Source of the DNA: Candidatus Anoxymicrobium japonicum
GTDB taxonomy: Bacteria > Actinomycetota > Geothermincolia > Fen-727 > Anoxymicrobiaceae
Reading direction: 5' to 3'
DNA: 49,230 bases
Assembly (NCBI GenBank): GCA_002843005.1
Contig: PHEX01000001.1
Location: 1-49,230 of the forward strand
In this document: positions 17,061 through 39,687 of the stretch, one piece after another
Numbering within the stretch: the first letter of the stretch is position 1
Layout: each line of letters opens with the position of its first letter
Position numbers and translations under genes: made by a program
The notes under the pieces: model-generated
The model's input: only the letters and a program-made list of their open reading frames with translations
What the model was told of the DNA's origin: nothing
The model's database searches: none

Positions 17061-17111
17061 GTCTGAGGTGAAGGAGACCAGAAGAATGTTGGGGTGAGGG
17101 GTATAGTGGTA

Positions 17112-17137
17112 GCCTGAACGGGGGTTATTTTCGAAGC
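17112..17137 (+). repeat. conserved intergenic motif ctgaNc-ggggttattttcg, copy A
   Basis: The 13-nt core ggggttattttcg (17121-17133) is identical to 27982-27994, and the flanking ctga.c is also shared. Both copies lie upstream of TTG-started genes. Confidence 0.4.
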
Positions 17138-17185
17138 AGGTCTTTTTTTAAAGTTTGCCTGACCTGACACCAAAGTTAAGGGGGG

Positions 17186-19555
17186 TTGTTGAAAGAGAAG
17201 TGGGGCAAAAAAGATTGGTTGGTGTTGCTTGGGCTTCTTGCACTGGCGACGCTCGCGTGGTCGCGGGTGCTGTTCATGCGGCAGTGGTCGTTTGGGATCG
17301 AGACTGATTTCATCCGGCAGTTTTATCCGGCCCGTGTTTACGCGACCGGATCACTCGCGTCCGGCGTGTTCCCTCTCTGGAATCCGCATGTGCTCTCGGG
17401 GCACCCGTTTTTCGCTTCATATCAGACCGCTATGCTTTATCCATTGAACCTCTTGATGGTAGGCTCGTACGCCGCCGCCGGCGCGACGTTCCCGCTCAAG
17501 GCCCTGTGCGTGTTCGTGGTTTTCCATTTTTTCCTTGCCGGCGCCTTTACTTATATCCTTTCGCGCGATCTCGTGCTCGGCAGGGCCGGCTCAACAGTTG
17601 CCGCTGTCACTTTCATGTTCTCGGGATACCTGGCGGCGCACGCGGGGCACATAAACCAGGTTTCCGCCGCGGCGTGGATGCCGCTGATATTTTTTCTGTT
17701 CAACCGCGCGCTGGAACGCCGGCGCTTCTCATGGGCCGTTGGCGCGGGCGTCGCGCTGGCGGCGGCGATCCTGGCCGGACACGTGCAACCGGTCTTTTAT
17801 CTGTGCGCGCTCCTTGCTGGCCTGACGCTTTTTCGGGCGTGGCAACATTACCGCTGTGAGACTGAAGGAACCGGGATCGCATTCGGGATCGCGTCGCTCG
17901 CCATCACGGTTGCGGTCGGCGCGGGCCTGGCGGCGGCGCAGTTGTTCCCGATGTACGAGCTCATCGGGCTATCGACACGGAGTCGGATGCCTTTCGACAT
18001 CGCTCGAACCTCGAGCCTTCCCAGGTGGCAGACGCTGAACCTTGTGTTCCCAAAATTCTTTGGCGCCAACGTGGCCAACTACACCGGCGGATGGTTTATA
18101 TGGGAGACGTACGGCTACTGCGGAATAGTGGGGGGGGCGCTTGGGATTGTGGCGCTTTTGCGCCGCCAGCGCGCATTTGTTCTGTTCCTGATGGCGGCGC
18201 TTGTTGGATCGCTTATCCTCGCGCTTGGGCCGGCCGGGTACATTTATACGTTGCTTTTCAAGGCGGGGTTCTTTGTCAACCGTTTTCGCAACCCGGCGCG
18301 CATCCTTGTGGTGTTCGCGTTTACTTCCGCTCTGCTTGCTGGACTGGGGGCCGACCATATTGTCCGGACATTCGCCGAGGAGGGGCGCGCGCGCTACGCC
18401 GCCGCTACGCGCCTTGTCGGTTTTCTCGCGGCGCTGTTGCTCATCCTGACTGGCGCTCTTTCTGTGTTTCTGCTTTTGAGAGGTGGCAAGCCCGTCCAGA
18501 ACGGCATCGCCTTCAAGAGCATGATAATGCCGGTGGCGCTGCTCCTGTTGTTTCTGGGATTGCTCACGCTGGCGCGACGCGTGAAGCTGAACGCCAGGAC
18601 GCTGGCGATAGGCATACTTCTTCTGGTGGCGGTGGATCTGATAGCGCAAAACGTCCCGTGGGTGATGGTGAAAGTCAAACCTGGCGATTTTTACGGCGAC
18701 GCCGCGGCGTCGCGTTACGTGGCCTCACAACATGGCGCCTTTCGCGTCGAGACGGACGCGCATACCATGTATAAGTCGCTGGACAACGGCCCGTTGTACG
18801 GCCTGGATAAAGCCACGGGAGATGATTCGCTTGTCCTTGCCGACTACAACAACTACCGTGAGATCATTTTGCCGCAGGTTTCTCCCGGAGTGCAGATAGG
18901 GCTGTTCTATGATGGCGCTTTGAACTCCCCGATGCTGGATCCGCTGAATGACGCGTATTTTCTAACGCGCCAGCCGATCAACCCCGTGTTGCTGCGACAG
19001 GGCAAGCTCAAGCTTGACCGCCGCATGGGGGGGGTATACGTGTATCGAAACACCACCATCCTGCCGCGCGCCTGGATGAGCGACGCCCGCGCGTACAGCG
19101 ACAACCAGAGGATTTACGACGAGCTTGTCCGTACGCGCGGGAAAGACATTCGTAGCACGGCCCTGGTCGTGATGCCTGATGTGGCCGCTTCCCGCGGACA
19201 GGGCGCGCCCGTGCCGGCGGTCAAAAGGCCCGTGGTTCTACGCGAGCGGTCGGCGCACAGGTTGCTGCTCGAGTGCGATCCGATTAGCCGTGGTCTCCTC
19301 GTCCTCTCAGAGATGTACTACCCCGGCTGGCAGGCGTACATCGACGGCAGGAAGGCCGAGACGTTCAAGACGGACCTCATGCTTCGTGGAGTGATGCTTC
19401 CCGGAGGCCAGAAGGAGGTCGAGTTCCGCTTCGAGCCGCGAAGCCTTCGAATGGGAATCGCGGTCTCTCTCACTTTCGCCGCGCTTTTGTTGCTATACTT
19501 TGGAATCCTTGTTTTCGCATCGCTACGCCAACCGGCGCGAGAGGAAGAAGTTTGA
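17186..19555 (+). CDS. YfhO-family GT-C membrane glycosyltransferase
   Basis: 789 aa with many TM segments. The first loop is GIETDFIRQFYPARVY. The C-terminal YYPGWQAYIDGRKAE...GGQKEVEFRFEP is typical of YfhO. TTG start after AAGGGGGG. Confidence 0.75.
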   Translation: MLKEKWGKKDWLVLLGLLALATLAWSRVLFMRQWSFGIETDFIRQFYPARVYATGSLASGVFPLWNPHVLSGHPFFASYQTAMLYPLNLLMVGSYAAAGATFPLKALCVFVVFHFFLAGAFTYILSRDLVLGRAGSTVAAVTFMFSGYLAAHAGHINQVSAAAWMPLIFFLFNRALERRRFSWAVGAGVALAAAILAGHVQPVFYLCALLAGLTLFRAWQHYRCETEGTGIAFGIASLAITVAVGAGLAAAQLFPMYELIGLSTRSRMPFDIARTSSLPRWQTLNLVFPKFFGANVANYTGGWFIWETYGYCGIVGGALGIVALLRRQRAFVLFLMAALVGSLILALGPAGYIYTLLFKAGFFVNRFRNPARILVVFAFTSALLAGLGADHIVRTFAEEGRARYAAATRLVGFLAALLLILTGALSVFLLLRGGKPVQNGIAFKSMIMPVALLLLFLGLLTLARRVKLNARTLAIGILLLVAVDLIAQNVPWVMVKVKPGDFYGDAAASRYVASQHGAFRVETDAHTMYKSLDNGPLYGLDKATGDDSLVLADYNNYREIILPQVSPGVQIGLFYDGALNSPMLDPLNDAYFLTRQPINPVLLRQGKLKLDRRMGGVYVYRNTTILPRAWMSDARAYSDNQRIYDELVRTRGKDIRSTALVVMPDVAASRGQGAPVPAVKRPVVLRERSAHRLLLECDPISRGLLVLSEMYYPGWQAYIDGRKAETFKTDLMLRGVMLPGGQKEVEFRFEPRSLRMGIAVSLTFAALLLLYFGILVFASLRQPAREEEV

Positions 19556-20262
19556 AGCTTTCGGTGATCATGCCGACGCATAACGAAGAGGCGACAATCG
19601 AAGAAGTGATTCGCCGTGTCCGCGCGGTCGATCTCGGGGACGTGGCGCTCGAGGTCATTGTGGTGGACGACGCGTCCACGGATTCCACGCCTTCGAGGCT
19701 GGCCGCCTTCGAGGGGAAAGAGAACGTGACGGTTTTATCCCACCAGATAAACCGCGGCAAAGGCGCCGCTATCCGCACAGGGCTCGAGTCGGTCACCGGA
19801 GACATGGTGATCATCCAGGACGCCGATCTCGAGTACGATCCCGGCGACTACCCGCGTCTTATCGAGCCTGTAATGACCGGGCGCGCCGACGTCGTTTACG
19901 GCAGCCGCTTCAAGGGCAGTTGTGAGAACATGGCTTTCGCGAACCTTGTGGCAAACAAGATACTGGCGTGGACGGCCACGTTGCTGTTCGGGAAGCGTAT
20001 TACAGATGAGGCAACCTGCTATAAGGTTTTTAAGACGGACGTGTTGCGCTCGTTCGATCTTCAGTGCGAGCGCTTCGAGTTCTGTCCCGAGGTGACCGCC
20101 AGGGCGCTTCGGGGAGGGTACCGCCTGCTCGAAGTTCCGATTTCCTACCGCGCCCGGACGGTCGAGGCCGGCAAGAAGATTCGCGCGTCCGATGGCATCC
20201 AGGCGGTGTGGACGCTGGTGCGCTTCAGGTTCAAGCGCAAGCGCATACGGAAGAGCGCCTGA
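19552..20262 (+). CDS. GT2 polyprenyl-phosphate sugar synthase-like (DPM1/Ppm1-type, no TM tail)
   Basis: MKLSVIMPTHNEE, VIVVDDASTDST, NRGKGAAIRTG and IIQDADLEYDP. TTGA overlap with the yfhO-like gene. Confidence 0.8.
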   Translation: MKLSVIMPTHNEEATIEEVIRRVRAVDLGDVALEVIVVDDASTDSTPSRLAAFEGKENVTVLSHQINRGKGAAIRTGLESVTGDMVIIQDADLEYDPGDYPRLIEPVMTGRADVVYGSRFKGSCENMAFANLVANKILAWTATLLFGKRITDEATCYKVFKTDVLRSFDLQCERFEFCPEVTARALRGGYRLLEVPISYRARTVEAGKKIRASDGIQAVWTLVRFRFKRKRIRKSA

Positions 20263-20324: not shown

Positions 20325-21173
20325 ATGATGATAGAAAGACTCAAAGATCTATGGTGCCACCGGGAGCTCCTCTTCAACATGACCAGGAAGGAGCTCAAGG
20401 TCAAATACAAGCGCTCAGTGCTGGGGTTCGTGTGGTCGTTCATGACTCCGCTCATCATGCTGGCCGTCTTCAGCCTCGTCTTTTCAATTCTGGCCAAAAC
20501 CCCCATGAACTGGTTTGTGATCTACCTGATGTCAGGCCTCTTCCCGTGGCTGTTTTTCGTGAACTCGCTCATGCAGAGCGTTGGCTCAGTCGTCGGCAAC
20601 CCGGGTCTCGTGAAGAAGGTTTACTTTCCCCGCGAGGTTCTGCCAATCGCCTCGGTAGGCGCGAACATATTCCACTTCATCCTGCAGATGCTGATCCTGC
20701 TGCTGTTTCTCGTCATTATCGGCTGGCACTTTTCAATATACATCTTGTACCTGCCGCTGGTGATGTTGCTCGAGATCGTCTTAACGATGGGCCTGGCCCT
20801 CTGCATCTCCTCGGCGAACGTTTACTTGAGGGACGTCCAGCACTTCACGGAAGTCGCCACAATGGCGTGGTTCTGGCTGTGCCCTATCGTTTACACGATT
20901 GGCGCAGTGATGGGCCAGTTGGGAAGTTTTTTCAAGCTGTACCTGTGCAACCCAATGACCAACATCGTGCAACTTTACCAGTTTATAATCTATAATCCGC
21001 GCTTCTACGCCCCAAAATCTTATATAGAAGCGCGTCCACCCAGAGGGCAGCCGGCCGTGATCTACCTGTCTTTCTGGGGCATATTCGCCACGATTGTCCT
21101 GTCGGTACTGTTGCTCGTCTTCGGCTACTACTATTTCATCATGAAGGAGCGCGGGTTTGCCGAGCAGATATAA
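20325..21173 (+). CDS. wzm: ABC-2 type polysaccharide export permease
   Basis: ELLFNMTRKELKVKYKRSVLGFVWSFMTPL signature, six hydrophobic segments, 282 aa. Confidence 0.88.
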   Translation: MMIERLKDLWCHRELLFNMTRKELKVKYKRSVLGFVWSFMTPLIMLAVFSLVFSILAKTPMNWFVIYLMSGLFPWLFFVNSLMQSVGSVVGNPGLVKKVYFPREVLPIASVGANIFHFILQMLILLLFLVIIGWHFSIYILYLPLVMLLEIVLTMGLALCISSANVYLRDVQHFTEVATMAWFWLCPIVYTIGAVMGQLGSFFKLYLCNPMTNIVQLYQFIIYNPRFYAPKSYIEARPPRGQPAVIYLSFWGIFATIVLSVLLLVFGYYYFIMKERGFAEQI

Positions 21174-21187
21174 CACGGTGATGTGAT

Positions 21188-22423
21188 ATGGGATCGAATT
21201 ACGCGGTAGAAATAAACGGCGTCTCCAAGATGTTTAAGCTCCATCACGAGAATGTGCGGAGTTTAAAGGAAAAAGCGCTCTTTTTCAACAAGCGAGGTTA
21301 CGAGAAGTTCTGGGCGCTCAGGGACATCGACATCAAGGTCGAAGGGGGCGAGACCCTGGGCATCATAGGGGCAAACGGATCAGGCAAATCGACGTTGCTC
21401 AAGCTGATGACGAAGATACTCTACCCGACGAGCGGCAACGTCGTCACCAGCGGCAGCATCGCCGCGCTCCTCGAGCTGGGCGCGGGCTTCCAGCCCGACC
21501 TCACGGGGCGCGAGAACGTATATTTGAACGCCTCTATTCTCGGTTTCTCAAAGAAAGAGGTTGACAGGAGGTTTGACGATATCGTCGCGTTCGCGGAGAT
21601 GGAACGGTTCATCGACAACCACGTGAGAAACTACTCGAGTGGCATGTATATCAGGCTCGGGTTCGCCGTCGCGATAAATGTCGACCCGGACATTCTGATT
21701 ATTGACGAGGTGCTGGCGGTTGGCGACGAAGCCTTTCAGCGCAAGTGCCTCGAGCGTATCGGAGAGATACAGGACGCCGGCAAGACGATCGTCTTTGTCA
21801 CGCACAACGTTGAAATCACCAGGGAGATTTGTTCGAAGGTCATCATGCTGGACGAAGGCGTCATCGTTAAGGAAGGCAACCCTCGCGAGGTCGTCAACTA
21901 TTACCATCAGCAGATGGAGAGCGACGACGCGGAGCGCTCCGAGCGCGGCAACCGCAAGATAGAAGTGCTTGGCGTCTCTCTTCTCGACGAGAAGGATCAG
22001 CCGGCCAACGATTTTTATACCGGGCAGGACATGAAGATACGGGTGGCGTATCGCGCCAACGAGCCTGTCGAAGACCCGGTGTTCGGCTTCTCGATAGACG
22101 ATTACCGTGGTTTCACGGCATACGGCACCAACACGAGGCTAAAAAATCTCAAGTGCGGCACGATCACGGGGGAAGGTTTCGTCCAGTTCGACCTGAAGTC
22201 GATGCCGATGCTGGAAGGCCGCTATCTCGTGAGCATAGCTATTCATAACAGGGACGAGAGCACGATCTATCACTGGCTCGATAAGCATTATCCGTTCAGC
22301 ATGCACTCGGACATCAGTGATGTGGGGCTGCTCTACATACCGTCGAGCGTCACTATCGTCCCAAACCCCGCTCATCGCCCGTCGCGGGGCCCGTCAGTGG
22401 AGGCTACTCATGAGCCCGGTTGA
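21188..22423 (+). CDS. wzt: polysaccharide ABC exporter ATPase with a C-terminal Wzt_C-like domain
   Basis: Walker A GANGSGKST, signature YSSGMYIRLGFA, Walker B ILIIDEVLAVGD. There is an extra ~155-aa beta-rich C-terminal domain (IEVLGVSLLDE...VSIAIHN...). Confidence 0.9.
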   Translation: MGSNYAVEINGVSKMFKLHHENVRSLKEKALFFNKRGYEKFWALRDIDIKVEGGETLGIIGANGSGKSTLLKLMTKILYPTSGNVVTSGSIAALLELGAGFQPDLTGRENVYLNASILGFSKKEVDRRFDDIVAFAEMERFIDNHVRNYSSGMYIRLGFAVAINVDPDILIIDEVLAVGDEAFQRKCLERIGEIQDAGKTIVFVTHNVEITREICSKVIMLDEGVIVKEGNPREVVNYYHQQMESDDAERSERGNRKIEVLGVSLLDEKDQPANDFYTGQDMKIRVAYRANEPVEDPVFGFSIDDYRGFTAYGTNTRLKNLKCGTITGEGFVQFDLKSMPMLEGRYLVSIAIHNRDESTIYHWLDKHYPFSMHSDISDVGLLYIPSSVTIVPNPAHRPSRGPSVEATHEPG

Positions 22424-23708
22424 GATTGACATCGAGGATCTCCTCACTGACGTGGCGAACGCGCTCAACGAGCGAGAGACAGGCAGGCGCCAGTCGTACC
22501 GCTCCGAGGTTCGCGAAGTAGAAGACGTCATCTATCTGATGCCTGGCGCGTGGCAGAGCATCACCAACAGCCTCACGGCGCTGGATCAGAGCCTCGCCCC
22601 GATCTCCTCGGCGTTCACTGCCACGGATACGTCGCCGCATGAGCGTGGCGGGATCGCGCACGGTGTAAAAGGGATAGTGAAACGCGCGATTCAGAAGTCC
22701 GTGTACTGGTATGTGAACCCGGTAGTCGCGCAGCTTCACAGCATGCACTCGTCCACGGTGCGCGCGATGCACGAAGTTGCCGATCAGGTGAAGAGCATGA
22801 ACGACCGCCTGGAGATTCTCGAGAAGGACAACCTGACGACGCGTGTGCGGGCCCTGGAGGGAGAGAGGTTCGACGAGAGGATAGGGCGGCTCGAGCGCGC
22901 GTGGAGGCAGAAGGACGCGGATATCCGTGAAGAATTTGAGCCAGCGGCGGGCCCGGCGCCCACACTCATAGAGAGTGATCGCGGCGCGGGAAAAGGCCGC
23001 GCGCCAGAGTGTGTGGATCCGCTGTTCCACTTTGACTACTACTGGTTCGAGAGCATCCACAGGGGCGACAGGGCGCTGATCAAGCGTCGCCAGCAGCCTT
23101 ACATTGGTTACTTCGAGGGATGCTCAAATGTGTTGGATATCGGGTGCGGGCGCGGGGAGTTCCTCGAGCTCATGACCGAGAAGGGCATCGGCGGCTACGG
23201 CATTGATATCGAGGGCGACTCGGTGCAATCATGCGCAGATCTGGGGCTCGACGCCAGGAAAGCCGAAGCACGTGAGCATCTTGCCGCGCTGGGAGAGAAC
23301 AGCCTGGATGGCGTATTCATCTCGCAGGTCGCCGAGCACATGACGCCGGGCGAGCTCATCGAGATGGTCGGACTTGCCTGCTCGAGGATAGAGCCTGGTG
23401 GATTCATTGTGGTCGAGACGCCGAATCCGCAGTGCCTGCTCATATTCGCGAGTTTCTTCTACGCGGATCTCTCGCACGTGCAGCCGATACACCCCGAGAC
23501 AATGAGATTCCTCCTGCTATCAGCGGGCTTCAAGGACGTGGAGATCAAGTTTGTCAATCCCGTGCCTCGCAATCAGAGACTTGGTAAAGTTGTGATACAG
23601 GACATAGCGCCGGGCGAGATATGGGTAGATGAGCTGAACGCGAACATGGACAAGCTCAACTCCGTGCTGTTCGGCGATATGGATTACGCGGCGATAGCAA
23701 AGAAATAG
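22410..23708 (+). CDS. coiled-coil N-domain plus class I SAM methyltransferase (chain-terminator-like)
   Basis: ATG 22410 follows GTGGAGG and overlaps the wzt end. SVYWYVNPVVAQLHSMH box, heptad-like LEILEKDNLTTRVRALEGERFDERIGRLE, motif I VLDIGCGRGEFLE. Confidence 0.85.
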   Translation: MSPVEIDIEDLLTDVANALNERETGRRQSYRSEVREVEDVIYLMPGAWQSITNSLTALDQSLAPISSAFTATDTSPHERGGIAHGVKGIVKRAIQKSVYWYVNPVVAQLHSMHSSTVRAMHEVADQVKSMNDRLEILEKDNLTTRVRALEGERFDERIGRLERAWRQKDADIREEFEPAAGPAPTLIESDRGAGKGRAPECVDPLFHFDYYWFESIHRGDRALIKRRQQPYIGYFEGCSNVLDIGCGRGEFLELMTEKGIGGYGIDIEGDSVQSCADLGLDARKAEAREHLAALGENSLDGVFISQVAEHMTPGELIEMVGLACSRIEPGGFIVVETPNPQCLLIFASFFYADLSHVQPIHPETMRFLLLSAGFKDVEIKFVNPVPRNQRLGKVVIQDIAPGEIWVDELNANMDKLNSVLFGDMDYAAIAKK

Positions 23709-23723
23709 TCACAGAAGGAAGAT

Positions 23724-25520
23724 ATGGACGAGCAACCGACTATCGTCATACATGATTGGGACGACACCGACGGGGCGTCAAAACTGGCCCGCTCTCTCTC
23801 GTCCGGCCCGCTGGCGGTCACCGCAAGGAAGATTGCCGTTGTTGCTCATGCGGAGCACAGAGCGGCGCGCGAGCTGCTTGCGTCGATGGGTTTTGAAGTT
23901 ATACAGGCTTCGGTTGGGGCCACGTCGGGTGAGCGAAAGAACATGGGGATCAAATCGGCGCGCGGCGACGTTGCGCTTCTGTCATCGAAAGCCCAGCTCA
24001 TAGATAACGAGTGGCTTTCAAAGCTCTCCGAGGAGGCGGGATCCTCCCTCGCGGGAGTGGTGGGGTGCAAGGTGGTGGACGATAGAGGGATGATCCTCAA
24101 CGCGGGCTTTCACGTGCTGTCTCCCGAATGCGAGCTTTTCCCGCTTGGCGGTGGCAAGAAAGATATAAACCAGTACTACTACGCGCGGGAGGTGGAAGGT
24201 GTCGATTCCACCTGCATGTACATCCGGCGCGAGGCGCTCGATCGCGTTGGCGGCTTCGACGCGGATCTCGACGGGCACTATGACGATCTTGATTTCTGCC
24301 TGAACGTCAAGTCCGAAGGGTTTCCCGTTATGTGCGCCGGTCGCGTGAAGGTAGCCGTGCACGGCGGCGCGGACACGGCGCGCCAGGTCACTGATGCCGC
24401 GCACGAGGCGTACCGTGAACGACGGGCGGCGTATTACGCCGACAGGTACGATACCCGTGTCATGTGGCACTCGTGGATCAACGCGCCCACGGGGTACGCG
24501 GTTTCTTCGCAGTACCTGGTGCTCGCTCTCGAGCAATTGAACGTGGATGTGCGCTACGGTTTTGTGTACGGCGTCGAGGAGGCGCCGAACGATGACAGGC
24601 GCATCATGGAGGTGCGCCGCAAGACGAAAGACCTGGATGTAACTCAGGTTGTGTACGGGCAGGGCGACGTTTTCTTCAAGAACAGTGGCGCTTACAGGGT
24701 CGGCTACTCAATGCTGGAGGTCACCGGCATCCCCGCGGACTGGGTCGAACAGGCGAACGCGCTGGACGAGGTGTGGGTTCCGTCTCAATTCAACAAAGAA
24801 ACGTTTGCCGCGAGCGGTGTCACAAAGCCTTTGTATGTGATGCCACTGGGCGTAGACACAAACTACTTTCATCCATTCATCGATTCGCGCGAGATCGAGG
24901 GCCGCTTCGTGTTCCTGTCCGTGTTCGAATGGGGCGAGCGAAAAGCCCCTGAGGCTCTGCTGCAAGCGTACAACCAGGAGTTTTCGTCCAGCGATGACGT
25001 GCTCTTGCTCCTGAAGGTCAACAACACCGACCCTGCCGTCAATATCGAACGTCATATCGAGGCTATGCGCTTGAGGGCCGAACGGGCGCCCATGGCGATT
25101 GTGCTCAACCAGAACATTTCCAGCTACCAGATGGGCTCGCTCTACTGCTCCAGTGATTGCTTTGTCCTGCCCACGAGGGGGGAAGGTTGGGGCATGCCCA
25201 CGCTGGAGGCGATGGCGTGCGGGTTGCCGACTATCAGTACCAGTTGGAGCGCGCAGACTGAGTTTTTCAACGATGATGTCGGTTATCCCATCAACATTAA
25301 AGGGCTCATTCCAGCGGTCGCCAAGTGCCCTTACTACGACGGCTTCGAGTGGGCGGATCCCGACGTTGACCACCTGGCTTCGTTGATGCGGCGCGTGTAC
25401 GATAACCGCAAGGAGGCGCGGGCAAAAGGGTTGCGCGCTTCTATCCAGGCGCGCGAGAAGTGGACATGGCTTGACGCCGCCAGGCGCATAAAGGCGCGGC
25501 TCTGTGAAATCTCCGGCTGA
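23724..25520 (+). CDS. paralog of 11840-13711 with a degenerate GT2-like N-domain plus a GT4-like C-domain
   Basis: It aligns along its length with 11840-13711 (GDVALL..., DLDFCLN, DEVWVPSQF...VMPLGVDTNYFHP, GEGWGMPTLEAMACGLPTIST). VVDNGSTDGT is replaced by VVAHAEHRAA and NNDTE by SSKAQ. Confidence 0.8.
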   Translation: MDEQPTIVIHDWDDTDGASKLARSLSSGPLAVTARKIAVVAHAEHRAARELLASMGFEVIQASVGATSGERKNMGIKSARGDVALLSSKAQLIDNEWLSKLSEEAGSSLAGVVGCKVVDDRGMILNAGFHVLSPECELFPLGGGKKDINQYYYAREVEGVDSTCMYIRREALDRVGGFDADLDGHYDDLDFCLNVKSEGFPVMCAGRVKVAVHGGADTARQVTDAAHEAYRERRAAYYADRYDTRVMWHSWINAPTGYAVSSQYLVLALEQLNVDVRYGFVYGVEEAPNDDRRIMEVRRKTKDLDVTQVVYGQGDVFFKNSGAYRVGYSMLEVTGIPADWVEQANALDEVWVPSQFNKETFAASGVTKPLYVMPLGVDTNYFHPFIDSREIEGRFVFLSVFEWGERKAPEALLQAYNQEFSSSDDVLLLLKVNNTDPAVNIERHIEAMRLRAERAPMAIVLNQNISSYQMGSLYCSSDCFVLPTRGEGWGMPTLEAMACGLPTISTSWSAQTEFFNDDVGYPINIKGLIPAVAKCPYYDGFEWADPDVDHLASLMRRVYDNRKEARAKGLRASIQAREKWTWLDAARRIKARLCEISG

Positions 25521-25528
25521 GAGGAAAA

Positions 25529-25537
25529 TGCTATAAT
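25529..25537 (+). promoter_or_regulatory. candidate extended -10 promoter element TGcTATAAT
   Basis: A perfect TATAAT (25532-25537) is preceded by TGc. It lies 9 nt after the stop of 23724-25520 and just upstream of a structured palindromic leader. No clear -35. Confidence 0.35.
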
Positions 25538-25544
25538 TTCTCTT

Positions 25545-25630
25545 GGGGTCAGGCAACGTCTACCGCTTTAGCGGTAGACGGAAAGGTAGACGGTGCCTGA
25601 CCCCTGGCGTCTACCGCTTTAGCGGTAGAC
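25545..25630 (+). repeat. REP-like palindromic element, copy 2 (compound)
   Basis: GGGGTCAGGCA (25545-25555) is the reverse complement of TGCCTGACCCC (25594-25604). The 22-nt hairpin gtctaccgctttagcggtagac occurs twice (25558-25579, 25609-25630). ggtagacgg occurs three times. Confidence 0.65.
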
Positions 25631-25651
25631 GGTGGGAAAGGTGGTGGATAG

Positions 25652-26929
25652 TTGTCGAAGAAACGGATGGGCGAGGAAGCAAAAACTGAGGCCGCGGTTG
25701 AGGAAACGCTTCAGGGCCTTTCTTTGCGCTTGCGCGAAAAATCTCCCAACGGGCATCGCATCCAGACTTTCGATGACGCGGCGCTTATGGAGAACCTTCA
25801 TCTGACGAACGCCGTCTATGACAGCAACCTGCCGGGGGATGCCACGAGCGAGCGCAAGATCGTGGCGCCGCTGGTCGCCTTCTTCAAGCGCGTTATCAGG
25901 AAGTTGACCGCGTGGTACATCGATCCGGCGATGGATCAGCAGCGCATTTTCAATGCGTCTACAACTCACACGATAAACGAGATGAAGCAGTATCTCGACC
26001 ACATCCAGATAAACGAGGACATTCTTTCTACCATAATGCACCGCGATATCGCGCTCTTCCGCGCGAACGTCCTTTTTCTCAACAGGTATCTGGAGCGGCG
26101 CATGGCGGAGTTCGAGAAGGAGCTCGCGCTGCTACGCGCTCACGAAGCATTGCTTGCGGCGCCCGACGGGGAGGTTGGCGGGAATGGCGCCGCCGCCGCG
26201 AGCGACCCGTTTGCGACTATTGACATCCTGACTCTGGAACAGCGGGTGCACGGCTCACCCAGGAAAGCGAAGGATCGTCTGCGCGCGTACGTCCCTTGCT
26301 TCAAGGGTTGCGAGAACGTCCTCGCCATCGGATGCGGCAGGGGCGAGCTCCTACAGCTCTTCGCGCAGGAAGGCATAAGTGTCAGGGGAACGGAGACTAA
26401 CCCGACCCTCGTTGGCTACTGCAAAGACAACGAGTTGGACGTCCTGATGGCGAATCCGGTCGATTATCTGGAGACGCTCGCGGACGGCTCGCTCGATGGC
26501 ATCATCCTCTCGAGATTCGCCGGGCACGAGCCGCCGGCGCGCCTGGTGAGGATGCTCGTATTGTGCAGAAACAAGCTGGCGAGTGGCGCCCCGCTTGTCA
26601 TAGAGACACCTAATCCGTTCTCGATTTATGTGGTTACTTCATACGCGATGGAGAGTTCCGAGCAGGCTCACCCGCTCCACCCTGAAACACTCAAGCAACT
26701 CTGCATCTCATACGGGTTCACCGAGCCGCAGGTCATGTTCCTCAACCCGCTACCGCCGGAGGAGCATCTCGAGGAGCTCGAGCTGGCGATGAGCGGGGTG
26801 TTGCTCGATACACGCCAGAAGGAGTTTTTTCAAAAGATCAACGAGAACTTCGGCAGGCTCAACCGCATCCTCTTCAGCCACCGCGACTACGCGATTGTGA
26901 CAAATCGTGGCGGCGGGGATGGTACATGA
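25652..26929 (+). CDS. helical N-domain plus class I SAM methyltransferase
   Basis: TTG 25652 (or ATG 25667) follows GAAAGGTGG. KLTAWYIDPAMDQQRIFN box, motif I VLAIGCGRGELLQ, LVIETPNP. Confidence 0.85.
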   Translation: MSKKRMGEEAKTEAAVEETLQGLSLRLREKSPNGHRIQTFDDAALMENLHLTNAVYDSNLPGDATSERKIVAPLVAFFKRVIRKLTAWYIDPAMDQQRIFNASTTHTINEMKQYLDHIQINEDILSTIMHRDIALFRANVLFLNRYLERRMAEFEKELALLRAHEALLAAPDGEVGGNGAAAASDPFATIDILTLEQRVHGSPRKAKDRLRAYVPCFKGCENVLAIGCGRGELLQLFAQEGISVRGTETNPTLVGYCKDNELDVLMANPVDYLETLADGSLDGIILSRFAGHEPPARLVRMLVLCRNKLASGAPLVIETPNPFSIYVVTSYAMESSEQAHPLHPETLKQLCISYGFTEPQVMFLNPLPPEEHLEELELAMSGVLLDTRQKEFFQKINENFGRLNRILFSHRDYAIVTNRGGGDGT

Positions 26930-27909
26930 TGGACGGGTTCAAGTACGAAGATAAAATCGACTTAAGCGATGAAAACCAGACGTACACGAAATCCATCGCG
27001 ATGGTCGGAAGCAACAAGAAAGTCGTAGATTTTGGTTGCGCGACAGGCTTTGTCGCGCGTGTGCTGTCAGAGAGCGGTTGCGCCGTTACGGGCATCGAGA
27101 TAGATCCTCAGGCGGCTGAAGAGGCTGCCAGGTACTGTGACGAAGTAATAGTCGGGAACCTCGATGAGATGGATATAGAGCAGGTTCTCGGCCCCGGGAA
27201 ATATGATGTCGGGTTTTTCGGGGACATCATCGAGCATCTCAAGAACCCGCGCGCGGCGCTCGAGCGCATGCGCGATTTGCTTGCGCCGGGAGGCTACGTC
27301 GTACTGTCCGTGCCGAACATCGCGCACGCAAGCATTCGGCTTGCCATACTGAAGGGCCGGTTCGATTATGAGGACACAGGCATTCTCGACGCGACTCACC
27401 TCAAGTTCTATACGCGAGAGAGCATTGGCGACCTGCTGGAGAGTTGCGGCTACCTGGTGGAGACCATAGACTCAGTTGATCAGAAAGTGGAAAAAGACGC
27501 GCTCCACGAAGCTCTTGACCCGCTGGGACTGGCCAACCTCGAGGAGGTGGTCAAGGCTTTTTCGGAGTGGGAGGCCGTTGCGTTCCAGTACGTGGTGAAG
27601 GCGTCGCCGGCGACCGAGGAGGCTCATATGCAAAGGTTGTCTGATGAGAAAGTGAAGGCGGAGCACAGGCTGAGGGTGCTCGAGCGTGAGGTCGTCGAGT
27701 ACCGCAAAATGGCGGACAACATGAAGAAAATGGAGGCACAGATCGAGAAGATGGAAGCAGAAATGAAAAGAACCAGTGAGTACGCGAAGGCGGAAGTCGA
27801 GAAGTCCGGCAAGTACGCGAAGGGCCTCGAGAAAGCTATCCAGGATAAGGACGCCTACATCGCGCAACTCGAGGAAGCGATGGCAGAGAGCAAGCGGCGG
27901 GCAGGCTGA
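26926..27909 (+). CDS. class I SAM methyltransferase with a C-terminal coiled coil
   Basis: ATGA overlap with the upstream gene. Motif I VVDFGCATGF, GGYVVLSVPN. The last ~100 aa are heptad-rich (RVLEREVVEYRKMADNMKKMEAQIEKMEAEMKR...). Confidence 0.85.
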   Translation: MMDGFKYEDKIDLSDENQTYTKSIAMVGSNKKVVDFGCATGFVARVLSESGCAVTGIEIDPQAAEEAARYCDEVIVGNLDEMDIEQVLGPGKYDVGFFGDIIEHLKNPRAALERMRDLLAPGGYVVLSVPNIAHASIRLAILKGRFDYEDTGILDATHLKFYTRESIGDLLESCGYLVETIDSVDQKVEKDALHEALDPLGLANLEEVVKAFSEWEAVAFQYVVKASPATEEAHMQRLSDEKVKAEHRLRVLEREVVEYRKMADNMKKMEAQIEKMEAEMKRTSEYAKAEVEKSGKYAKGLEKAIQDKDAYIAQLEEAMAESKRRAG

Positions 27910-27960
27910 AACGCAACACAGCGTTGGTGTTGCGTTGGGGTCAGGCCCCTGTGTTGCGTT
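27910..27960 (+). repeat. hairpin with a duplicated 3' arm flanking a GGGGTCAGGC box
   Basis: aacgcaacac (27910-27919) is complementary to gtgttgcgtt at both 27927-27936 and 27951-27960. ggggtcaggcccc lies between them (27937-27949). Confidence 0.55.
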
Positions 27961-27972
27961 TAAGGAAGTTGC

Positions 27973-27998
27973 GGTCTGATCGGGGTTATTTTCGGATC
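27973..27998 (+). repeat. conserved intergenic motif ctgaNc-ggggttattttcg, copy B
   Basis: See 17112-17137. The core at 27982-27994 is identical. Confidence 0.4.
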
Positions 27999-28018
27999 CC
28001 TGGCGAGAGGAACACACC

Positions 28019-29686
28019 TTGACTGAAAAACCCTCGAGGGGACAGAAAGTTGGACGCGTGTGGTCCGAGGACGCCGCCAGGCGCGCCCGGGGCCGCGCCG
28101 AGCCGCGGGTTGACTGGAGTACATCACCAGCCATCCAGAAGATAATCAACAGACGCGTCAGCGGCTCGCCTGACATCGACTGGCTGGAGTGGCTGCTGCA
28201 AAAGTATGTCCCTTCGACACTTTCACTTGGGTTTTCCATCGGATGTGGATCGGGTGTGCTCGAGAGGGATGCGATCTCGCGGGGTATCTGCCAGCGCATG
28301 GTCGGTTGTGACATTGCTGAAGGCGCCATCGAGAAGGCAAAAGAGAACGCGGGCGACCTGGCGATAACCTACGAGTTGTTCGACCTCGAGTCGGGCGCTC
28401 TGCCCAGCGAAAGCTACGACGTAGCGTTCGCGTCCGCGACGCTGCACCACGTCAACAGGCTGGGGCATTGCGCCGAGGAGCTCCACGGGGCGCTCAAGCA
28501 AAGCGGCCTGCTGGTGGTCTCGGAGTTCGTGGGCCCAGCGAGGTTCCAGTGGACGCCCGAGCAGCTTCGTATTGTGACCGACATCTACAGTCTGCTTCCC
28601 TGGCGTTACAGGTTCAACTATCAGTCGGGCGGGACGGTCGCCCATGTGATGCGTCCTCATCTCTGCTCAATGGTAAAGGACGACCCATCGGAGGCGGTTC
28701 GCTCCGCCGACATAGAGAGCGCGCTCGAGCCGTACTTCGAGCTGTTGGAGAGCCGTCCCATAGGAGGGACGATACTGAACCCGCTCCTCGGCGGCATAAT
28801 GGAGAACTTTGACGAGGAGAGCGAGGTTGATCTGGCTTTCCTCAATGCGGTGGCCGCGCTCGAGGACGCGCTGATGGAAAAATGCGCGCTCGAGTCCGAC
28901 TTCAAGATCATGGTGTACAGACGAAGGGAATGCTCATCACCCTCTGAAGCTTACCTGGAGGCTGAACAAGCTCGAGGCGATCGAATATCGGAGCAAGAGC
29001 GGCGGATAGAGCGTCTCCTCGAAGAGACCGGCTTGCTGTCCGTCGAAAACGAGAAGATTGAGGCCGAGCTGGCGCGGGTTCGTGGGTTCGCGGGAGAGGC
29101 CGGTCAGGCTGTCGCTCGGGCTGTCGCGGAGAACGCGCGCCTGAAATCCGGCGTTGTCTTTCGCGTGATACGGGCGCTCAGAGGCTCGGAGGCGGCGCCT
29201 CCCCCTACCGGCCCCCCCGATGCAGAAGGAGGCGTCGAAGAGCTTCAAGTCGACAACAGGAGGGATGTGCCGGCGCCGTTCGGTGAAGGCAGTTTCCTGG
29301 CGAGCGATCTCGCGCGCGCGGCCTTACGCTATGTCGCCGAAGCGCCGGGAGGGAACGATGAAGATATGACCAGGTCGCTGGCCGCTCTTGAGGTCTATGC
29401 TGACGCGGTTCTCGCGAGTAAGGGCATCGTGCCGGCGGCGCGCTCTATTCGAGACATTGCCGTTCTTCAGGATATGGAGATAGACAGGCTCACCAGGGGA
29501 ATCACGGCATTGCGCGAGTACAGCCAGTCTCTCTCGAGAGAAATCGGCTCAGTTTACGCGCAGATGGATGGCGCCAGGCTGGATCGTGAGAGGTTGGCCG
29601 CTGAGAGGGAGGTTCTCCGAAAGCGGGGGCCTCTCATGTACTGGCGGCTCTTCAAGCTGAAGGCGAACTCCTCACACCTCTCTTGA
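28019..29686 (+). CDS. class I SAM methyltransferase with a long C-terminal coiled-coil region (WbdD-like layout)
   Basis: TTG start. Motif I FSIGCGSGV, LLVVSEFVGP. The C-terminal ~270 aa have heptad-like stretches (ISEQERRIERLLEE..., LDRERLAAEREVLRK) and a terminal basic/aromatic segment GPLMYWRLFKLKAN. Confidence 0.8.
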   Translation: MTEKPSRGQKVGRVWSEDAARRARGRAEPRVDWSTSPAIQKIINRRVSGSPDIDWLEWLLQKYVPSTLSLGFSIGCGSGVLERDAISRGICQRMVGCDIAEGAIEKAKENAGDLAITYELFDLESGALPSESYDVAFASATLHHVNRLGHCAEELHGALKQSGLLVVSEFVGPARFQWTPEQLRIVTDIYSLLPWRYRFNYQSGGTVAHVMRPHLCSMVKDDPSEAVRSADIESALEPYFELLESRPIGGTILNPLLGGIMENFDEESEVDLAFLNAVAALEDALMEKCALESDFKIMVYRRRECSSPSEAYLEAEQARGDRISEQERRIERLLEETGLLSVENEKIEAELARVRGFAGEAGQAVARAVAENARLKSGVVFRVIRALRGSEAAPPPTGPPDAEGGVEELQVDNRRDVPAPFGEGSFLASDLARAALRYVAEAPGGNDEDMTRSLAALEVYADAVLASKGIVPAARSIRDIAVLQDMEIDRLTRGITALREYSQSLSREIGSVYAQMDGARLDRERLAAEREVLRKRGPLMYWRLFKLKANSSHLS

Positions 29687-29706
29687 GCCGCGTCTCTAAA
29701 GGCGCG
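29683..29706 (+). repeat. conserved 24-nt box ttgaNccgcgtctctaaaggcgcg, copy 1
   Basis: 19 nt (29688-29706) are identical to 44233-44251, and 23 of 24 match when the ttga prefix is included. The box can form a CCGCG/CGCGG hairpin. Confidence 0.55.
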
Positions 29707-29741
29707 GATCCATCTGGCATGGCCTTGAGAGGTGGAAGCGC

Positions 29742-29771
29742 GGACAGGCACGGCGCGAGGCCTGTTTTTTT
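29742..29771 (+). terminator. candidate intrinsic terminator after the methyltransferase block
   Basis: Stem ACAGGC (29744-29749) pairs with GCCTGT (29760-29765) and is extendable by two G-U pairs. It is followed by a T run to 29771. Located 56 nt after the stop at 29686. Confidence 0.55.
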
Positions 29772-29823
29772 GTATAGTTCCTTTGTATATCATGTGCTGA
29801 AATTCAAGTGTGTGGAGGCATCT

Positions 29824-31227
29824 TTGAGCAAGATTCTTGTGCTCGGGCACGCTCCCTTGCCGTGGGAGGATCTCGCCAAGTCATACGGGCCGGGAACGAG
29901 GACGTGGCAGTTCGCCCTTCCACTGCTTCAAGACGGCCACGACGTCACCGTCCTCGCGTCCCGCATACCGTTCGTTTACCCCGAGAACATCGAGCCGGTC
30001 GAGAAATGCGAGGAGCAGGGATGCACGGTGTACAGGGTCACACAGCCGGAGTTCGAGGTCGGCGGCATCACCGACCGGTTGATGACCGACCTGGATCCGG
30101 ACTGCGTCGTCGCGGCGACCGCTTACCCGTCTTACGTCGGGGCTACGTACGCGGGTGAGCGCCCGCTCTGGGCCGACGTCTTCGGGAGCTACCTTGCCGA
30201 GGCGCAGGCCAAGGCGGCCGTGTACTCCGACGACTCCTTCATCGACCATTTTCAGAGGGTTAACAACCACATCATCTCCATGGCGGATCGCTTCAGCACG
30301 GTCTCCGAGCGCCAGGCTTGTGAGTTGGTTGGACAGCTCGGGGTGAACGGCAGGCTCAACTCCGGGACCCTCGGTTATGACTTCGCGCGCTCAATACCGT
30401 GCGGAGTCGTAGACAGGGAGTTTCCGTCTCCGGCTTACCCGGACGAGAGGCTGGGCCCATTGGATTTCATCGTCCTCTGGAGCGGCGGCTTCAACACCTG
30501 GACAGACGTCCGCACCCTCTTTGAAGGGCTCGAGTTCGCCATGTCGGAGCGAGAGAACATACACTTTGTGTCCACCGGCGCCGAGATCGAGGGTCACAAT
30601 GACAGGACTTACCGGGATTTCGAGCGGATGGTCGCTTCATCCAGGTTCAGAGAGCGTTTTCACCTGCTGGGCTGGGTGAAAAGGAGCGAGGCCCTGTCGT
30701 TCTACGGCACAGCTTCGGTCGGGATCAACATTGACGCCATGCACTACGAGGTGATGTTCGGCAGCAGGAACCGTATTCTGGAGTGGGCGCTCGCCGGGCT
30801 GCCCGCCGTCTCCACCGACCTCTGCGAGCTCACGTCGGAACTGTTCTCAGAGGGCCTGCTGTTCGCTGTCCCGGTCGCCGATCCGCCCGCCCTCGCCGGC
30901 AGGCTCCTCGAGCTGGAGCGTTCCAGGGACAAGCTCATCGGGGTCTCCCGCCGGCTCAAGAGCCACGTCCTCGAGCGCTACTCGTTTGAAAGGACAACGG
31001 TTCCGTTGAGGGAATGGGTCCGGCGCCCGACGCGCGCTCCGGACTTTGCCGACAGGGTCGGCTTGCGGAACGAAGCGCTGGTTGCCGCGCGCCGGGTTTT
31101 CACCCCACCGATAACGCCGGATTCTCCGATTAGAGAGAAGCTTGTGTTTTATCTCAAGAACGAGGGAGTCGCGAGCACTTTGAGGAGGTCGGCCGGACTG
31201 CTCGGGAGGCGGGGCGCCGGGCGATGA
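29824..31227 (+). CDS. GT-B fold glycosyltransferase (GT4-like)
   Basis: TTG 29824 lies 5 nt after GGAGG (29814-29818). The ORF track start at 29683 would read through the terminator. KILVLGHAPLPWED N-terminus and GSRNRILEWALAGLPAVST near the C-terminus. Confidence 0.72.
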   Translation: MSKILVLGHAPLPWEDLAKSYGPGTRTWQFALPLLQDGHDVTVLASRIPFVYPENIEPVEKCEEQGCTVYRVTQPEFEVGGITDRLMTDLDPDCVVAATAYPSYVGATYAGERPLWADVFGSYLAEAQAKAAVYSDDSFIDHFQRVNNHIISMADRFSTVSERQACELVGQLGVNGRLNSGTLGYDFARSIPCGVVDREFPSPAYPDERLGPLDFIVLWSGGFNTWTDVRTLFEGLEFAMSERENIHFVSTGAEIEGHNDRTYRDFERMVASSRFRERFHLLGWVKRSEALSFYGTASVGINIDAMHYEVMFGSRNRILEWALAGLPAVSTDLCELTSELFSEGLLFAVPVADPPALAGRLLELERSRDKLIGVSRRLKSHVLERYSFERTTVPLREWVRRPTRAPDFADRVGLRNEALVAARRVFTPPITPDSPIREKLVFYLKNEGVASTLRRSAGLLGRRGAGR

Positions 31228-31329: not shown

Positions 31330-32523
31330 TTGAAGATAGCGTATTTCAGCCCGCTGAACCCAATAAAATCGGGCGTTTCTGATTACTCGGAAGAGCTCCT
31401 CGAGTACCTTGGCGGCTACGGAAAGATTGACCTGTTCATCGATGATTACCGCCCCTCCAACTCCTGGATATACGAGCAATTCAATGTTTTCAACTACCGG
31501 AGGATATTCGAGAACCACGGCAAGAACGATCACGATGTCAACATTTACCACATCGGAAACAACGACAATCACTCGTACATCTACCAGGTGTGCCTGGAGT
31601 ATCCTGGCATAGTCGTGCTCCACGAACCCATGCTTCACCATTTCATCTTTTCACAAACGATAGGGAATAACCGCGTGCGTGACTACCTGAGAGAGCTTGA
31701 CTACTGCTATAACTCACGGCGAGCCGAGATCATCAAGAGCACGCTCGAGGAGCGCGACGAGAACTCGTGGTACGACTACCCGCTGCTGGACAGGATAGTC
31801 GATTCCAGTCTGGGCGTTATAGTGCACAGCGAGTTCGCGCGCGCCAAAGTGCTGGAGGTAAATCAGTGCGCGCGGGTCAGGAGGATATCGCATCACTGGT
31901 CGCCGCCACCGCCCGACCACATGCGCACTCCGGAGAGGTTGCGCGAGACACTGGGCTTTCGACCGGAAGATTTTCTTGTCGGCTCGATGGGTTACATCAA
32001 CTCGAGCAAGAGGATAGACGCGCTCCTTCGCGTCATAGCGAAGGCTAAAAAGATGGGATACCCCGTGAAGCTTCTTCTCGTCGGGAAGATGCTGTCAGGT
32101 TCGGAGGTGCTCAGGTGGATCGAGGATCTTGATCTGGAAGATGATGTCCTTGTCTCCGGGTTTGTGGACACTATGACGTTTGCCGAGTACCTGAACGTGC
32201 CGGATCTGTTTGTGGCGCTACGCTATCCGAGCGCCGGCGAGACCAGCGGCAGCGTAATAAAAATGATGGGCGCCGGCAAGCCCGTGGTAGTGTCGGACCG
32301 GTACGCGTTCGGCGAGTTCCCCGACGACTGCTGCGTCAAAGTCGCAGCTGGCGAGAATGAAGAGGACGAGCTGCTCGAGAAGCTCGTTTATTACATGGAC
32401 AACCCCGACGAAAGGCTCGCGCTCGGGGAGCGGAGCCAGAGGTATATCCTGAAACATCACGACATCCAGGACGCCGCGCGCGGATATGTCCACTTCGCCA
32501 CGGAGCTGCTGTCGGGCGGTTAG
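31330..32523 (+). CDS. glycosyltransferase family 4 (GT-B)
   Basis: TTG start 7 nt after AGGAG. MKIAYFSPLNPIKSGVSDYSEELL N-terminus and AGETSGSVIKMMGAGKPVVVSD. Confidence 0.86.
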   Translation: MKIAYFSPLNPIKSGVSDYSEELLEYLGGYGKIDLFIDDYRPSNSWIYEQFNVFNYRRIFENHGKNDHDVNIYHIGNNDNHSYIYQVCLEYPGIVVLHEPMLHHFIFSQTIGNNRVRDYLRELDYCYNSRRAEIIKSTLEERDENSWYDYPLLDRIVDSSLGVIVHSEFARAKVLEVNQCARVRRISHHWSPPPPDHMRTPERLRETLGFRPEDFLVGSMGYINSSKRIDALLRVIAKAKKMGYPVKLLLVGKMLSGSEVLRWIEDLDLEDDVLVSGFVDTMTFAEYLNVPDLFVALRYPSAGETSGSVIKMMGAGKPVVVSDRYAFGEFPDDCCVKVAAGENEEDELLEKLVYYMDNPDERLALGERSQRYILKHHDIQDAARGYVHFATELLSGG

Positions 32524-32663
32524 GGCGCATGCTCGCCCACCATCTTTGCATATGCGGTAACATTACCGAATAGTTCAAAGGAGTTGTCGGTTCCAAAAGC
32601 AAATAAATACTTACACAAAAATATCTATCGTAAGTGGAGCTGAAACGAGACCGGAGGGGGCTG

Positions 32664-39655: not shown

Positions 39656-39687
39656 TAATGACGAAAGACGGACAGGGGAACAACAGA

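Follow-up and report, generated by a model that had tools for sequence, protein, structure and literature searches.

Results

Four methyltransferase genes with long helical modules follow a glycan exporter

The DNA analysed here (the window) is a stretch of 49,230 nucleotides (nt), positions 1 to 49,230 of the forward strand of contig PHEX01000001.1, from Candidatus Anoxymicrobium japonicum, an uncultured member of the Candidatus Geothermincolia (Actinomycetota). Its GC content is ∼0.58, and the Pfam map shows that nearly the whole window is a single glycan-biosynthesis locus. Within this locus, the genes of an ATP-binding cassette (ABC) transporter, wzm and wzt, are followed by four genes, named MT1 to MT4 here, whose products combine an S-adenosylmethionine (SAM)-dependent methyltransferase (MT) fold with a long helical module. 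The evidence below indicates that the region is probably a WbdD-like, capped-glycan and ABC-transporter-dependent envelope polysaccharide system with extra paralogues. Its central features are the following (aa, amino acids; GT, glycosyltransferase; N-module, the N-terminal helical module of MT1 and MT2).

20325-21173, plus strand: Wzm, ABC-2 permease of the glycan exporter (ABC2_membrane, PF01061, 1.8e-15)
21188-22423, plus strand: Wzt, ATPase (PF00005) with a Wzt_C domain (PF14524, 1.7e-29) at aa 251-382 (nt 21938-22333)
22410-23708, plus strand: MT1, helix at aa 82-171 (nt 22653-22922), MT domain at aa ∼205-432
23724-25520, plus strand: polymerase-like GT of 598 aa, degenerate GT2 N-terminal half and GT4 C-terminal half (Pfam, NCBIfam)
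25521-25651, plus strand: structured intergenic repeat element between the GT gene at 23724 and MT2
25652-26929, plus strand: MT2, N-module and MT fold (MetW, 1.7e-6, a weak match)
26926-27909, plus strand: MT3, MT domain at aa 1-228 (Pfam aa 29-178, 1.5e-21) and C-terminal coiled coil, strongly indicated by sequence, at aa 229-326
28019-29686, plus strand: MT4, MT domain at aa 37-302 (Pfam aa 74-167, 1e-14) and helices at aa 310-376 and 480-554

The four open reading frames (ORFs) that an initial annotation had placed downstream of wzm-wzt are present, each with a Pfam class I MT domain, and their motif I strings (VLDIGCGRGE, VLAIGCGRGE, VVDFGCATGF and FSIGCGSGV) are exactly as quoted there. 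All four follow wzm-wzt, but they had been called consecutive, and the 598-aa GT (23724-25520) separates MT1 from MT2-MT4. The wzt and MT1 genes overlap by 14 nt, and overlaps of 4 nt each link MT2 to MT3, MT4 to the following GT4 gene and the gene at 11361 to the GT gene at 11840 (GT11840), pointing to translational coupling. In relatives with MT1 proteins 53-73% identical to that of the window, the genes likewise run GT2GT4-PMT_2-DUF2079-YfhO-GT2-Wzm-Wzt_C-MT1-GT-MT2-MT3-MT4, and the gene-order comparison finds the position of Wzm to be common to them. The left arm of the locus, including the order of the gene at 8022 and its two downstream GT4 genes, is kept in the related locus L089. On balance, we take the conserved locus to span ∼45 kb, with the four-MT region as its transport, termination and elongation core.

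MT1 represents a common family often encoded next to Wzt_C genes

Orthologues support ATG 22410, and not GTG 22317, as the start of MT1. Its MT domain was recognised by Pfam at aa 234-378 (Methyltransf_23, 3e-11; MetW, 9e-12), and its nearest solved structure is 3dli (3e-55; Foldseek template-modelling score of 0.86, normalised to the target); after 3dli, the Foldseek search with the MT1 model returned generic class I MTs only. In the AlphaFold2 model, which was built with a 25-sequence alignment and, like that of MT4, is a monomer, an unbroken helix (aa 82-171; predicted local distance difference test (pLDDT) score 55-65) is followed by a disordered linker (aa 172-209) and by an MT domain with pLDDT >90.

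MT1 has more than 3000 database relatives, the closest named records being metagenome-assembled genomes (MAGs) of Geothermincolia and Anoxymicrobiaceae (73-75% identity). Several relatives are labelled "O-antigen chain-terminating methyltransferase" by JGI, a phrase that was not found in the literature searched. In the family alignment, the long helix opens with a conserved box of basic and aromatic character, KRxxRKxxxWY(V/I)NPxxAQQxxFN. The initial annotation had described a shared WY(V/I)xP...Q...FN box in the two N-terminal modules; it is complete in MT2, but MT1, which has WYVNP...Q, carries "MH" where the family consensus, MT2 and the protein encoded at 11361 have "FN". MT1 keeps every family-invariant residue of the catalytic domain in this alignment; we consider it the canonical N-module MT and a candidate chain terminator. 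Overall, the MT1-type family of putative terminators is very common and has a topology that is the reverse of WbdD's.

The genomic context of N-module proteins was compared across 80 genome loci and additional loci, among which 44 N-module anchors had at least 2.5 kb of upstream DNA. A Wzt_C ORF lies directly 5' of the N-module protein in 29 of these 44 loci and elsewhere in the locus in 7 more, compared with direct adjacency in 2 of 22 anchors that lack an N-module (Fisher p = 1.4e-5 when adjacency is compared and 1.2e-8 when any Wzt_C ORF in the locus counts). Further, the next downstream gene encodes a GT4 domain in 38/44 loci. MT1 itself directly follows the Wzt_C gene and precedes a GT4-bearing gene; MT2 is not placed directly after wzt. 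The methanogen Methanocalculus has Wzm, Wzt_C and an MT1 homologue, followed by a 1087-aa protein with several GT4 domains. These results show that wzm-wzt-MT1-GT is not new but a cassette that bacteria and archaea alike carry in this gene order, and that the homologues do occur together with Wzm and Wzt_C, a co-occurrence that the initial annotation had proposed to check. In most Wzt_C loci, the MT1-family protein is the sole MT.

The window contains four N-module copies in different states of decay

The initial annotation had pointed to relatives of the four MTs at 4648, 8022 and 11361, which lie in the following part of the window.

8022-9059, minus strand: MT-like gene without a Pfam match, first in minus-strand transcription order
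6806-8038, minus strand: GT4 (Pfam), downstream of the 8022 gene
5730-6809, minus strand: GT4 (Pfam), downstream of the 8022 gene
4648-5733, minus strand: ordinary class I MT (Methyltransf_11, 2e-20), last gene of the minus-strand sub-operon
11361-11843, plus strand: stand-alone N-module protein of 160 aa (BLASTP to MT2, 2e-9, and to MT1, 2e-7)
11840-13711, plus strand: polymerase-like GT2-GT4 fusion (PF00535, 9e-25, and GT4)

The relationship holds for the N-modules of the 8022 and 11361 proteins, but the MT fold of the former is degenerate, the latter is a module alone and the 4648 protein is an ordinary MT with neither N-module nor heptads. The start of the 4648 MT is probably M125 (nt 5733), and the alignment with a 364-aa orthologue begins at residue 124 of the long ORF. 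As judged from orthologues, the longest-ORF starts are probably wrong for 4648-6105 (minus strand), 8022-9059 (minus strand) and 22317-23708 (plus strand).

MT2 is a paralogue of MT1 (30% identity over 351 aa, E 6e-47). Six residues that do not vary among 24 MT1-type sequences of bacterial and archaeal origin have been exchanged in the MT2 lineage, in all or nearly all of its five sequences: Y210, R218, D243 (the motif I Asp; to Ala), E309 (to Gly), D353 and H356. Therefore, "apparently intact" MT domains in all four proteins overstated the case, which fails for MT2, albeit with the glycine loop and the ribose-binding acidic residue retained. A decaying pseudogene was rejected as an explanation because MT2 orthologues are conserved as strongly as MT1 orthologues.

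The 8022 protein aligned by hhalign with the MT1-family profile across module and MT fold (probability 96.8%, E 2.7e-10, 250 columns). It has "ATIVGPCPSAL" where the family has "VLDIGCGRGEF" and, being without the SAM loop, is likely a pseudo-enzyme. Its probable start is M28 (nt 8978), and it has an orthologue in L089. The 11361 protein consists of the N-module alone, and its orthologue (P0253) stands in the same arrangement in L089. Thus, the four N-module copies of the window form a decay series in which MT1 is canonical, MT2 altered, the 8022 protein without a SAM loop and the 11361 protein bare. Every copy lies directly upstream of GT genes, and two of the four precede paralogous GT2-GT4 fusions (GT11840 and the GT at 23724, GT23724; 32% identity over 555 aa, E 3e-102). 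Because the decay series and the shared position before GTs are both conserved in relatives, the module, and not the MT domain, appears to be the common functional element, and we infer that it works with the adjacent GTs.

A profile made from the four window copies (cut-off E <= 1e-3) matched 1113 cluster representatives, many of which are ∼150 aa long and hence the module alone. Among the 86 longer N-module proteins scanned, 27 contain a MetW-type MT, 7 an FkbM-type (Methyltransf_21) MT and 1 a GT4 domain, the rest being without a Pfam domain. No Pfam model covered the module in the scan of the window proteins. The results show that the N-module is portable: it is found by itself, joined to either of two MT folds and, in one case, joined to a GT4 domain. 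Separately, N-module proteins of 220-320 aa without a recognisable domain were seen to form a large class (P0253-P0401).

MT3 and MT4 are separate lineages

MT3 and MT4 are related to MT1/MT2, and to each other, at the level of the fold only. The nearest solved structure of MT3 is 3cc8 (1e-32) and that of MT4 is 3bkw, a weak match. The MT3 family (229 matches) typically comprises proteins of 310-365 aa in which an MT is joined to a coiled coil of ∼100 aa; one member is named "SAM-dependent methyltransferase/coiled-coil protein SlyX" and several "O-antigen biosynthesis protein". Three of six distant members, from Calothrix (L086), an archaeon (L088) and a metagenome (L090), lie beside Wzm, Wzt_C and a large polymerase-like GT; two others are in other GT-rich clusters and one is in an unrelated context. 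The Calothrix locus (Calothrix sp. NIES-3974, AP018254.1 4707356-4724486) encodes Wzm, Wzt_C, an RMNT/CmcI-type MT, a Methyltransf_11 protein, the MT3 homologue, an 871-aa double GT4, an MT, a GT2 and RmlC, and therefore has four MTs around one exporter. The archaeal Wzt_C locus has a radical-SAM enzyme and two MTs. With these two loci at hand, we rejected the idea that four MTs after wzm-wzt are unique to the window. In an actinobacterial MAG (L092), the genes after the MT3 homologue encode two MT-GT2 fusions and an RMNT-type MT.

MT4 has 12 relatives only, all within this clade. The window copy is 555 aa long compared with 690-768 aa in all 11 homologues, the difference being an in-frame loss of a ∼160-aa central domain. 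In the homologues, this domain has the look of a second, degenerate Rossmann-type fold (LGLEP...YDLV...ADGGxLV). Both coiled-coil segments are still present in the window copy, as is a conserved C terminus of basic and aromatic character, RGPLxYWRLxRLR, which is no more than suggestive of a WbdD-like membrane-binding region. AlphaFold2 places the MT domain of MT4 at aa 37-302 and helices at aa 310-376 (67 residues) and aa 480-554 (75 residues, reaching the C terminus), with a disordered stretch between them.

Long helices are predicted in all four methyltransferases

The helical regions were assessed with the AlphaFold2 models and with a home-made heptad score, calibrated on GCN4, tropomyosin and shuffled sequences only. 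The C-terminal tail of MT3 (aa 229-326) scored 14.9, which is the level of tropomyosin and makes a strong sequence-based case for a coiled coil. Heptad segments of 28-36 aa lying just above the 95th percentile of shuffles were found in MT1, MT2 and MT4, and short ones also in the 8022 and 11361 proteins; the same scan of the 4648 MT gave no segment above threshold. In each family, 88-92% of the proteins show segments of this kind, and across the MT4 family their positions agree. Thus, long helical modules are confirmed in all four MTs, as the initial annotation had expected, and it is plausible that those of MT1, MT2 and MT4 form coiled coils.

The C-terminal domain of Wzt resembles a methyl-cap reader

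Wzt aligned at aa 12-388 with Aquifex Wzt (8dku, 8e-77) over the full length and through the carbohydrate-binding domain, and the Aquifex aeolicus WzmWzt transporter (8dku, 7k2t) is the closest solved relative of the window Wzt. The Aquifex domain binds 3-O-methyl-Man/Rha caps via Leu300, Thr346, Ala348 and Trp362 (PMC9445017). At these methyl-pocket positions, the window Wzt keeps Trp362 and Ala348, and both Thr346 and Leu300 are replaced by Ser; hence, its cap may differ from that of Aquifex. The pocket thus fits a predicted methylated sugar cap, not necessarily the Aquifex one. The 49-kb window encodes one transporter and one Wzt_C domain only. Taken together, and as far as sequence can tell, the window has several of the features that mark a capped-glycan system: adjacent Wzm and Wzt, a C-terminal carbohydrate-binding module on Wzt and predicted chain-modifying enzymes (MT1-MT4 and the 4648 MT).

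The flanking genes and intergenic elements

The remaining features of the locus, assigned by Pfam, are listed below.

9211-10077, plus strand: RmlD
10074 onward, plus strand: GT4
13698 onward, plus strand: PMT_2
15337 onward, plus strand: DUF2079
17186 onward, plus strand: YfhO-like
19552 onward, plus strand: small GT2
29683-31227, plus strand: GT4
31330-32523, plus strand: GT4
32634-35084, plus strand: DUF5719 protein
3' of the DUF5719 gene: further PMT_2, GT2 and GT4 genes and sugar-nucleotide enzymes

The region upstream of wzm (13698-20262), which is kept in relatives, encodes GT-C-type membrane proteins (PMT_2, DUF2079 and YfhO-like) and a small GT2 of the polyprenol-phosphate-sugar synthase type; the set resembles a system for extracytoplasmic decoration of an exported polymer. 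The DUF5719 protein (816 aa) contains four tandem repeats of ∼105 aa, ERPMYFxYH...W(Y/F)(L/F)AEG(A/T)T...FEEW...NPG...YMFxGG, has a faint match to a surface-layer (S-layer) protein (Slr4) and adjoins two PMT_2 genes; a role as glycan acceptor or as a protein of the envelope is possible. RmlD occurs without RmlA, RmlB or RmlC in the 49-kb window, and the orthologous left arm of L089 is without RmlD. An AAA_14/DUF4143 ATPase gene (39658-40875), unlike its glycan-locus neighbours, stands between PMT_2 and GT2 genes.

The 131-nt spacer between GT23724 and MT2 (25521-25651) has a minimum free energy of -66 kcal/mol (z = -8.3). It is one of the sites, with 100-172 and 27910-28018, of an intergenic element that resembles repetitive extragenic palindromic (REP) sequences. 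The sequence GGGGTCAGGC occurs exactly four times, every one intergenic; GGTAGACGG.AAGGTAGACGGTGCCTGACCCC recurs at ∼120-150 and ∼25575-25604, and the hairpin CGTCTACCGC-TTTA-GCGGTAGACG is present twice. The structured intergenic regions gave nothing at the gathering threshold in Rfam, and on this empty scan a known RNA element was ruled out.

Comparison with characterised capped-glycan systems

In the WbdD ruler model, the coiled coil of the chain terminator sets polymer length, a role that is established for WbdD and WbbB (PMC11231755, PMC3482155); coiled-coil terminators are described as widespread in one account, where a 2019 census is cited (PMC11231755). The WbdD system of Escherichia coli O8/O9a (Klebsiella O5/O3; WbdA, Wzt with its carbohydrate-binding module) shares with the window the order wzm-wzt-terminator-polymerase (wzm-wzt-wbdD-wbdA in O9a), a SAM-dependent MT fused to a long helix and an exporter with a C-terminal cap-binding domain; further, in MT3 and MT4, as in WbdD, the enzyme is N-terminal and the coiled coil, predicted in the window proteins, C-terminal. 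However, the window MTs are without a kinase domain and are kin to WbdD only in the SAM-binding fold, the helix of MT1 and MT2 is N-terminal, and four helix-bearing MTs and two non-catalytic module proteins stand against one terminator; the host, moreover, is an actinobacterium and not Gram-negative. Orthology to WbdD was rejected because the WbdD structures 4azs, 4ax8 and 4uw0 matched at E 0.02-0.16 over motif I only and were absent from the MT4 matches. Thus, the parallel to WbdD and a cap-reading Wzt drawn in the initial annotation stands as a parallel of genomic context and function but not as homology: the comparison proposed there ended at noise level in the sequence searches of the PDB and with a reversed topology for MT1/MT2.

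The common polysaccharide antigen (CPA) TET operon of Pseudomonas syringae (PMC7820976) has the identical order wzm-wzt-wbdD-like MT-wbdA-like GT, a likeness of gene order alone, with an MT-only terminator followed by a bifunctional GT; unlike the window, it has one MT and its product is a lipopolysaccharide O antigen (PMC7820976). The S-layer glycan genes wzm-wzt-wsaE of Geobacillus stearothermophilus (PMC2943079) provide a Gram-positive, ABC-transporter-dependent system with an O-methyl cap, in which wzm, wzt and the MT-bearing gene overlap, and its rhamnose chemistry is plausible in the window too, given RmlD at 9211. In WsaE, however, the MT is fused to two GT domains with no described ruler, whereas the window MTs are separate proteins with long helices. 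In Klebsiella O7 (ORF6), O4 (ORF7) and O12 (WbbB), the terminator is likewise at the far end of a coiled coil and the catalytic modules are spread over polypeptides differently in each system, but the caps are methyl-phosphate or Kdo, the domain families are others and each system has one coiled-coil protein (PMC11231755). The closest solved folds of the MT1 and MT3 catalytic domains, 3dli (A. fulgidus) and 3cc8 (B. cereus), are structural-genomics MTs that comprise the catalytic domain alone, without a helical module. The statement in the initial annotation that the arrangement is undescribed therefore goes too far, because the TET operon and the wzm-wzt-wsaE order are published and other Wzt_C loci have three or four MTs.

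Discussion

The mechanism that we propose for the capped-glycan reading extends the characterised systems by analogy. MT1 would O-methylate the non-reducing terminal sugar of a polyprenol-linked chain, and this methylation would stop elongation and create the ligand for the Wzt C-terminal domain. The latter would act as a cap sensor, with cap binding needed for export, a scheme that E. coli O8/O9a, Aquifex and G. stearothermophilus exemplify. The N-module would be the counterpart of the WbdD coiled coil in reverse: it would oligomerise, dock the neighbouring GT polymerase and hold the catalytic domain at a distance, thereby influencing chain length. MT2 and the 8022 protein may serve mainly as scaffolds or adaptors, or their specificity may have shifted, and MT3, MT4 and the 4648 MT may add further methylations to give a multiply methylated cap, or act on other termini or additional residues. 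In this mechanism, the chemistry, the function of the helices as rulers and the module's contact with a GT are all inferred.

Several findings weigh against the capped-glycan reading or parts of it. The window MTs match WbdD only at noise level, no function is assigned to the nearest solved structures (3dli, 3cc8 and 3bkw), and the functions of the MT1, MT3 and MT4 families are predicted from sequence and context. The proposed binding of N-module to GT is deduced from gene adjacency alone, and a Wzt_C gene is missing within 10 kb of 8/44 N-module proteins. The helix of MT1 has a pLDDT of 55-65 only, its above-threshold heptad stretch is only 35 residues long, and the coiled-coil status is based on the home-made score and monomer models. 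Further, the loss of invariant residues in MT2 may mean a new specificity rather than lost activity, and neither an initiating phosphoglycosyltransferase nor a ligase of known type is seen in the window.

Other explanations differ mainly in what the MTs modify. The five MTs might mostly methylate internal residues, making an exported, heavily O-methylated and hydrophobic polysaccharide for which termination is secondary. Five MT-fold genes with SAM motifs in one locus, and other glycan loci with three or four MTs (L086 and L092), are in keeping with this explanation, as are rhizobial O antigens, which contain internal as well as terminal O-methyl sugars. However, a long-helix enzyme beside a Wzt_C gene is a published hallmark of terminal capping (PMC11231755), the MT1-family protein has no second MT beside it in most Wzt_C loci and the Wzt pocket for a terminal methyl sugar is partly conserved, so that we regard predominantly internal methylation as distinctly unlikely. 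With respect to the polymethylated polysaccharides of actinobacteria, to which the initial annotation had likened the product, an idea that the sequence neither favours nor counts against, the families of methylglucose lipopolysaccharides (MGLPs) and methylmannose polysaccharides (MMPs) gave no NCBIfam match, and no reference MGLP or MMP sequences were compared; the presence of Wzm-Wzt argues for export, as opposed to a cytoplasmic MGLP/MMP product. That the MTs have small-molecule or lipid substrates and that their place in a glycan locus is accidental is close to refuted by context and highly improbable: their best annotated neighbours in the PDB and NCBIfam are indeed of the UbiG, MetW and BioC type, but with weak scores, every NCBIfam match that would give the MTs a functional name is far below the family cut-off, and from archaea to actinobacteria the genes keep their order, their overlaps and their co-occurrence with Wzt_C and GT4.

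The number of polymers and the purpose of the helices can also be read differently. The units headed by the 8022, 11361, MT1 and MT2 genes might make several polymers or blocks, each with its own ruler or cap and all served by the single Wzm-Wzt. Every N-module gene heads its own GT group, two of these groups have the paralogous GT2-GT4 fusions, and the whole arrangement is conserved; yet one transporter with one Wzt_C domain in 49 kb implies one cap specificity, and two of the four module proteins are missing a working MT. We therefore judge several polymers unlikely. Alternatively, the helices may serve oligomerisation or membrane association only, with chain length set by enzyme stoichiometry or by the transporter. 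The heptad signals of MT1, MT2 and MT4 are short, and the basic and aromatic N-module box is like that of interfacial helices. The helices of 67-98 residues are nonetheless conserved in all three families, and WbdD and WbbB are precedents for the ruler role (PMC11231755); on this evidence, a purely structural function is doubtful, though a real possibility.

The capped-glycan reading itself belongs to a mechanism class that is already known, and the gain here is incremental, extending that mechanism. What is different is the reverse topology with its conserved box, the four graded module copies, two further helix-bearing MT lineages in a single operon and the uncultured actinobacterial host. 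As a tentative extension, which we think unlikely, the N-module could be a widespread, unrecognised adaptor or ruler domain that docks GT4-type polymerases from the N terminus, as the C terminus of WbdD docks WbdA, and the Geothermincolia series of enzyme, pseudo-enzyme and bare module could join the coiled coils of MT3 and MT4 in a single hetero-oligomeric hub for termination. If this were true, such a complex would build a cap with several methyl groups or coordinate the work of several polymerases at one exporter.

Knowledge of capped glycans comes from a few enterobacterial prototypes with one coiled-coil terminator each. The helical box of the N-module is a possible polymerase-docking site, and the active, degenerate and MT-less copies are a natural series with which scaffolding and catalysis could be told apart. 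Overall, the locus gives a first look at how an envelope glycan is assembled in a deep-branching, uncultured class of actinobacteria.

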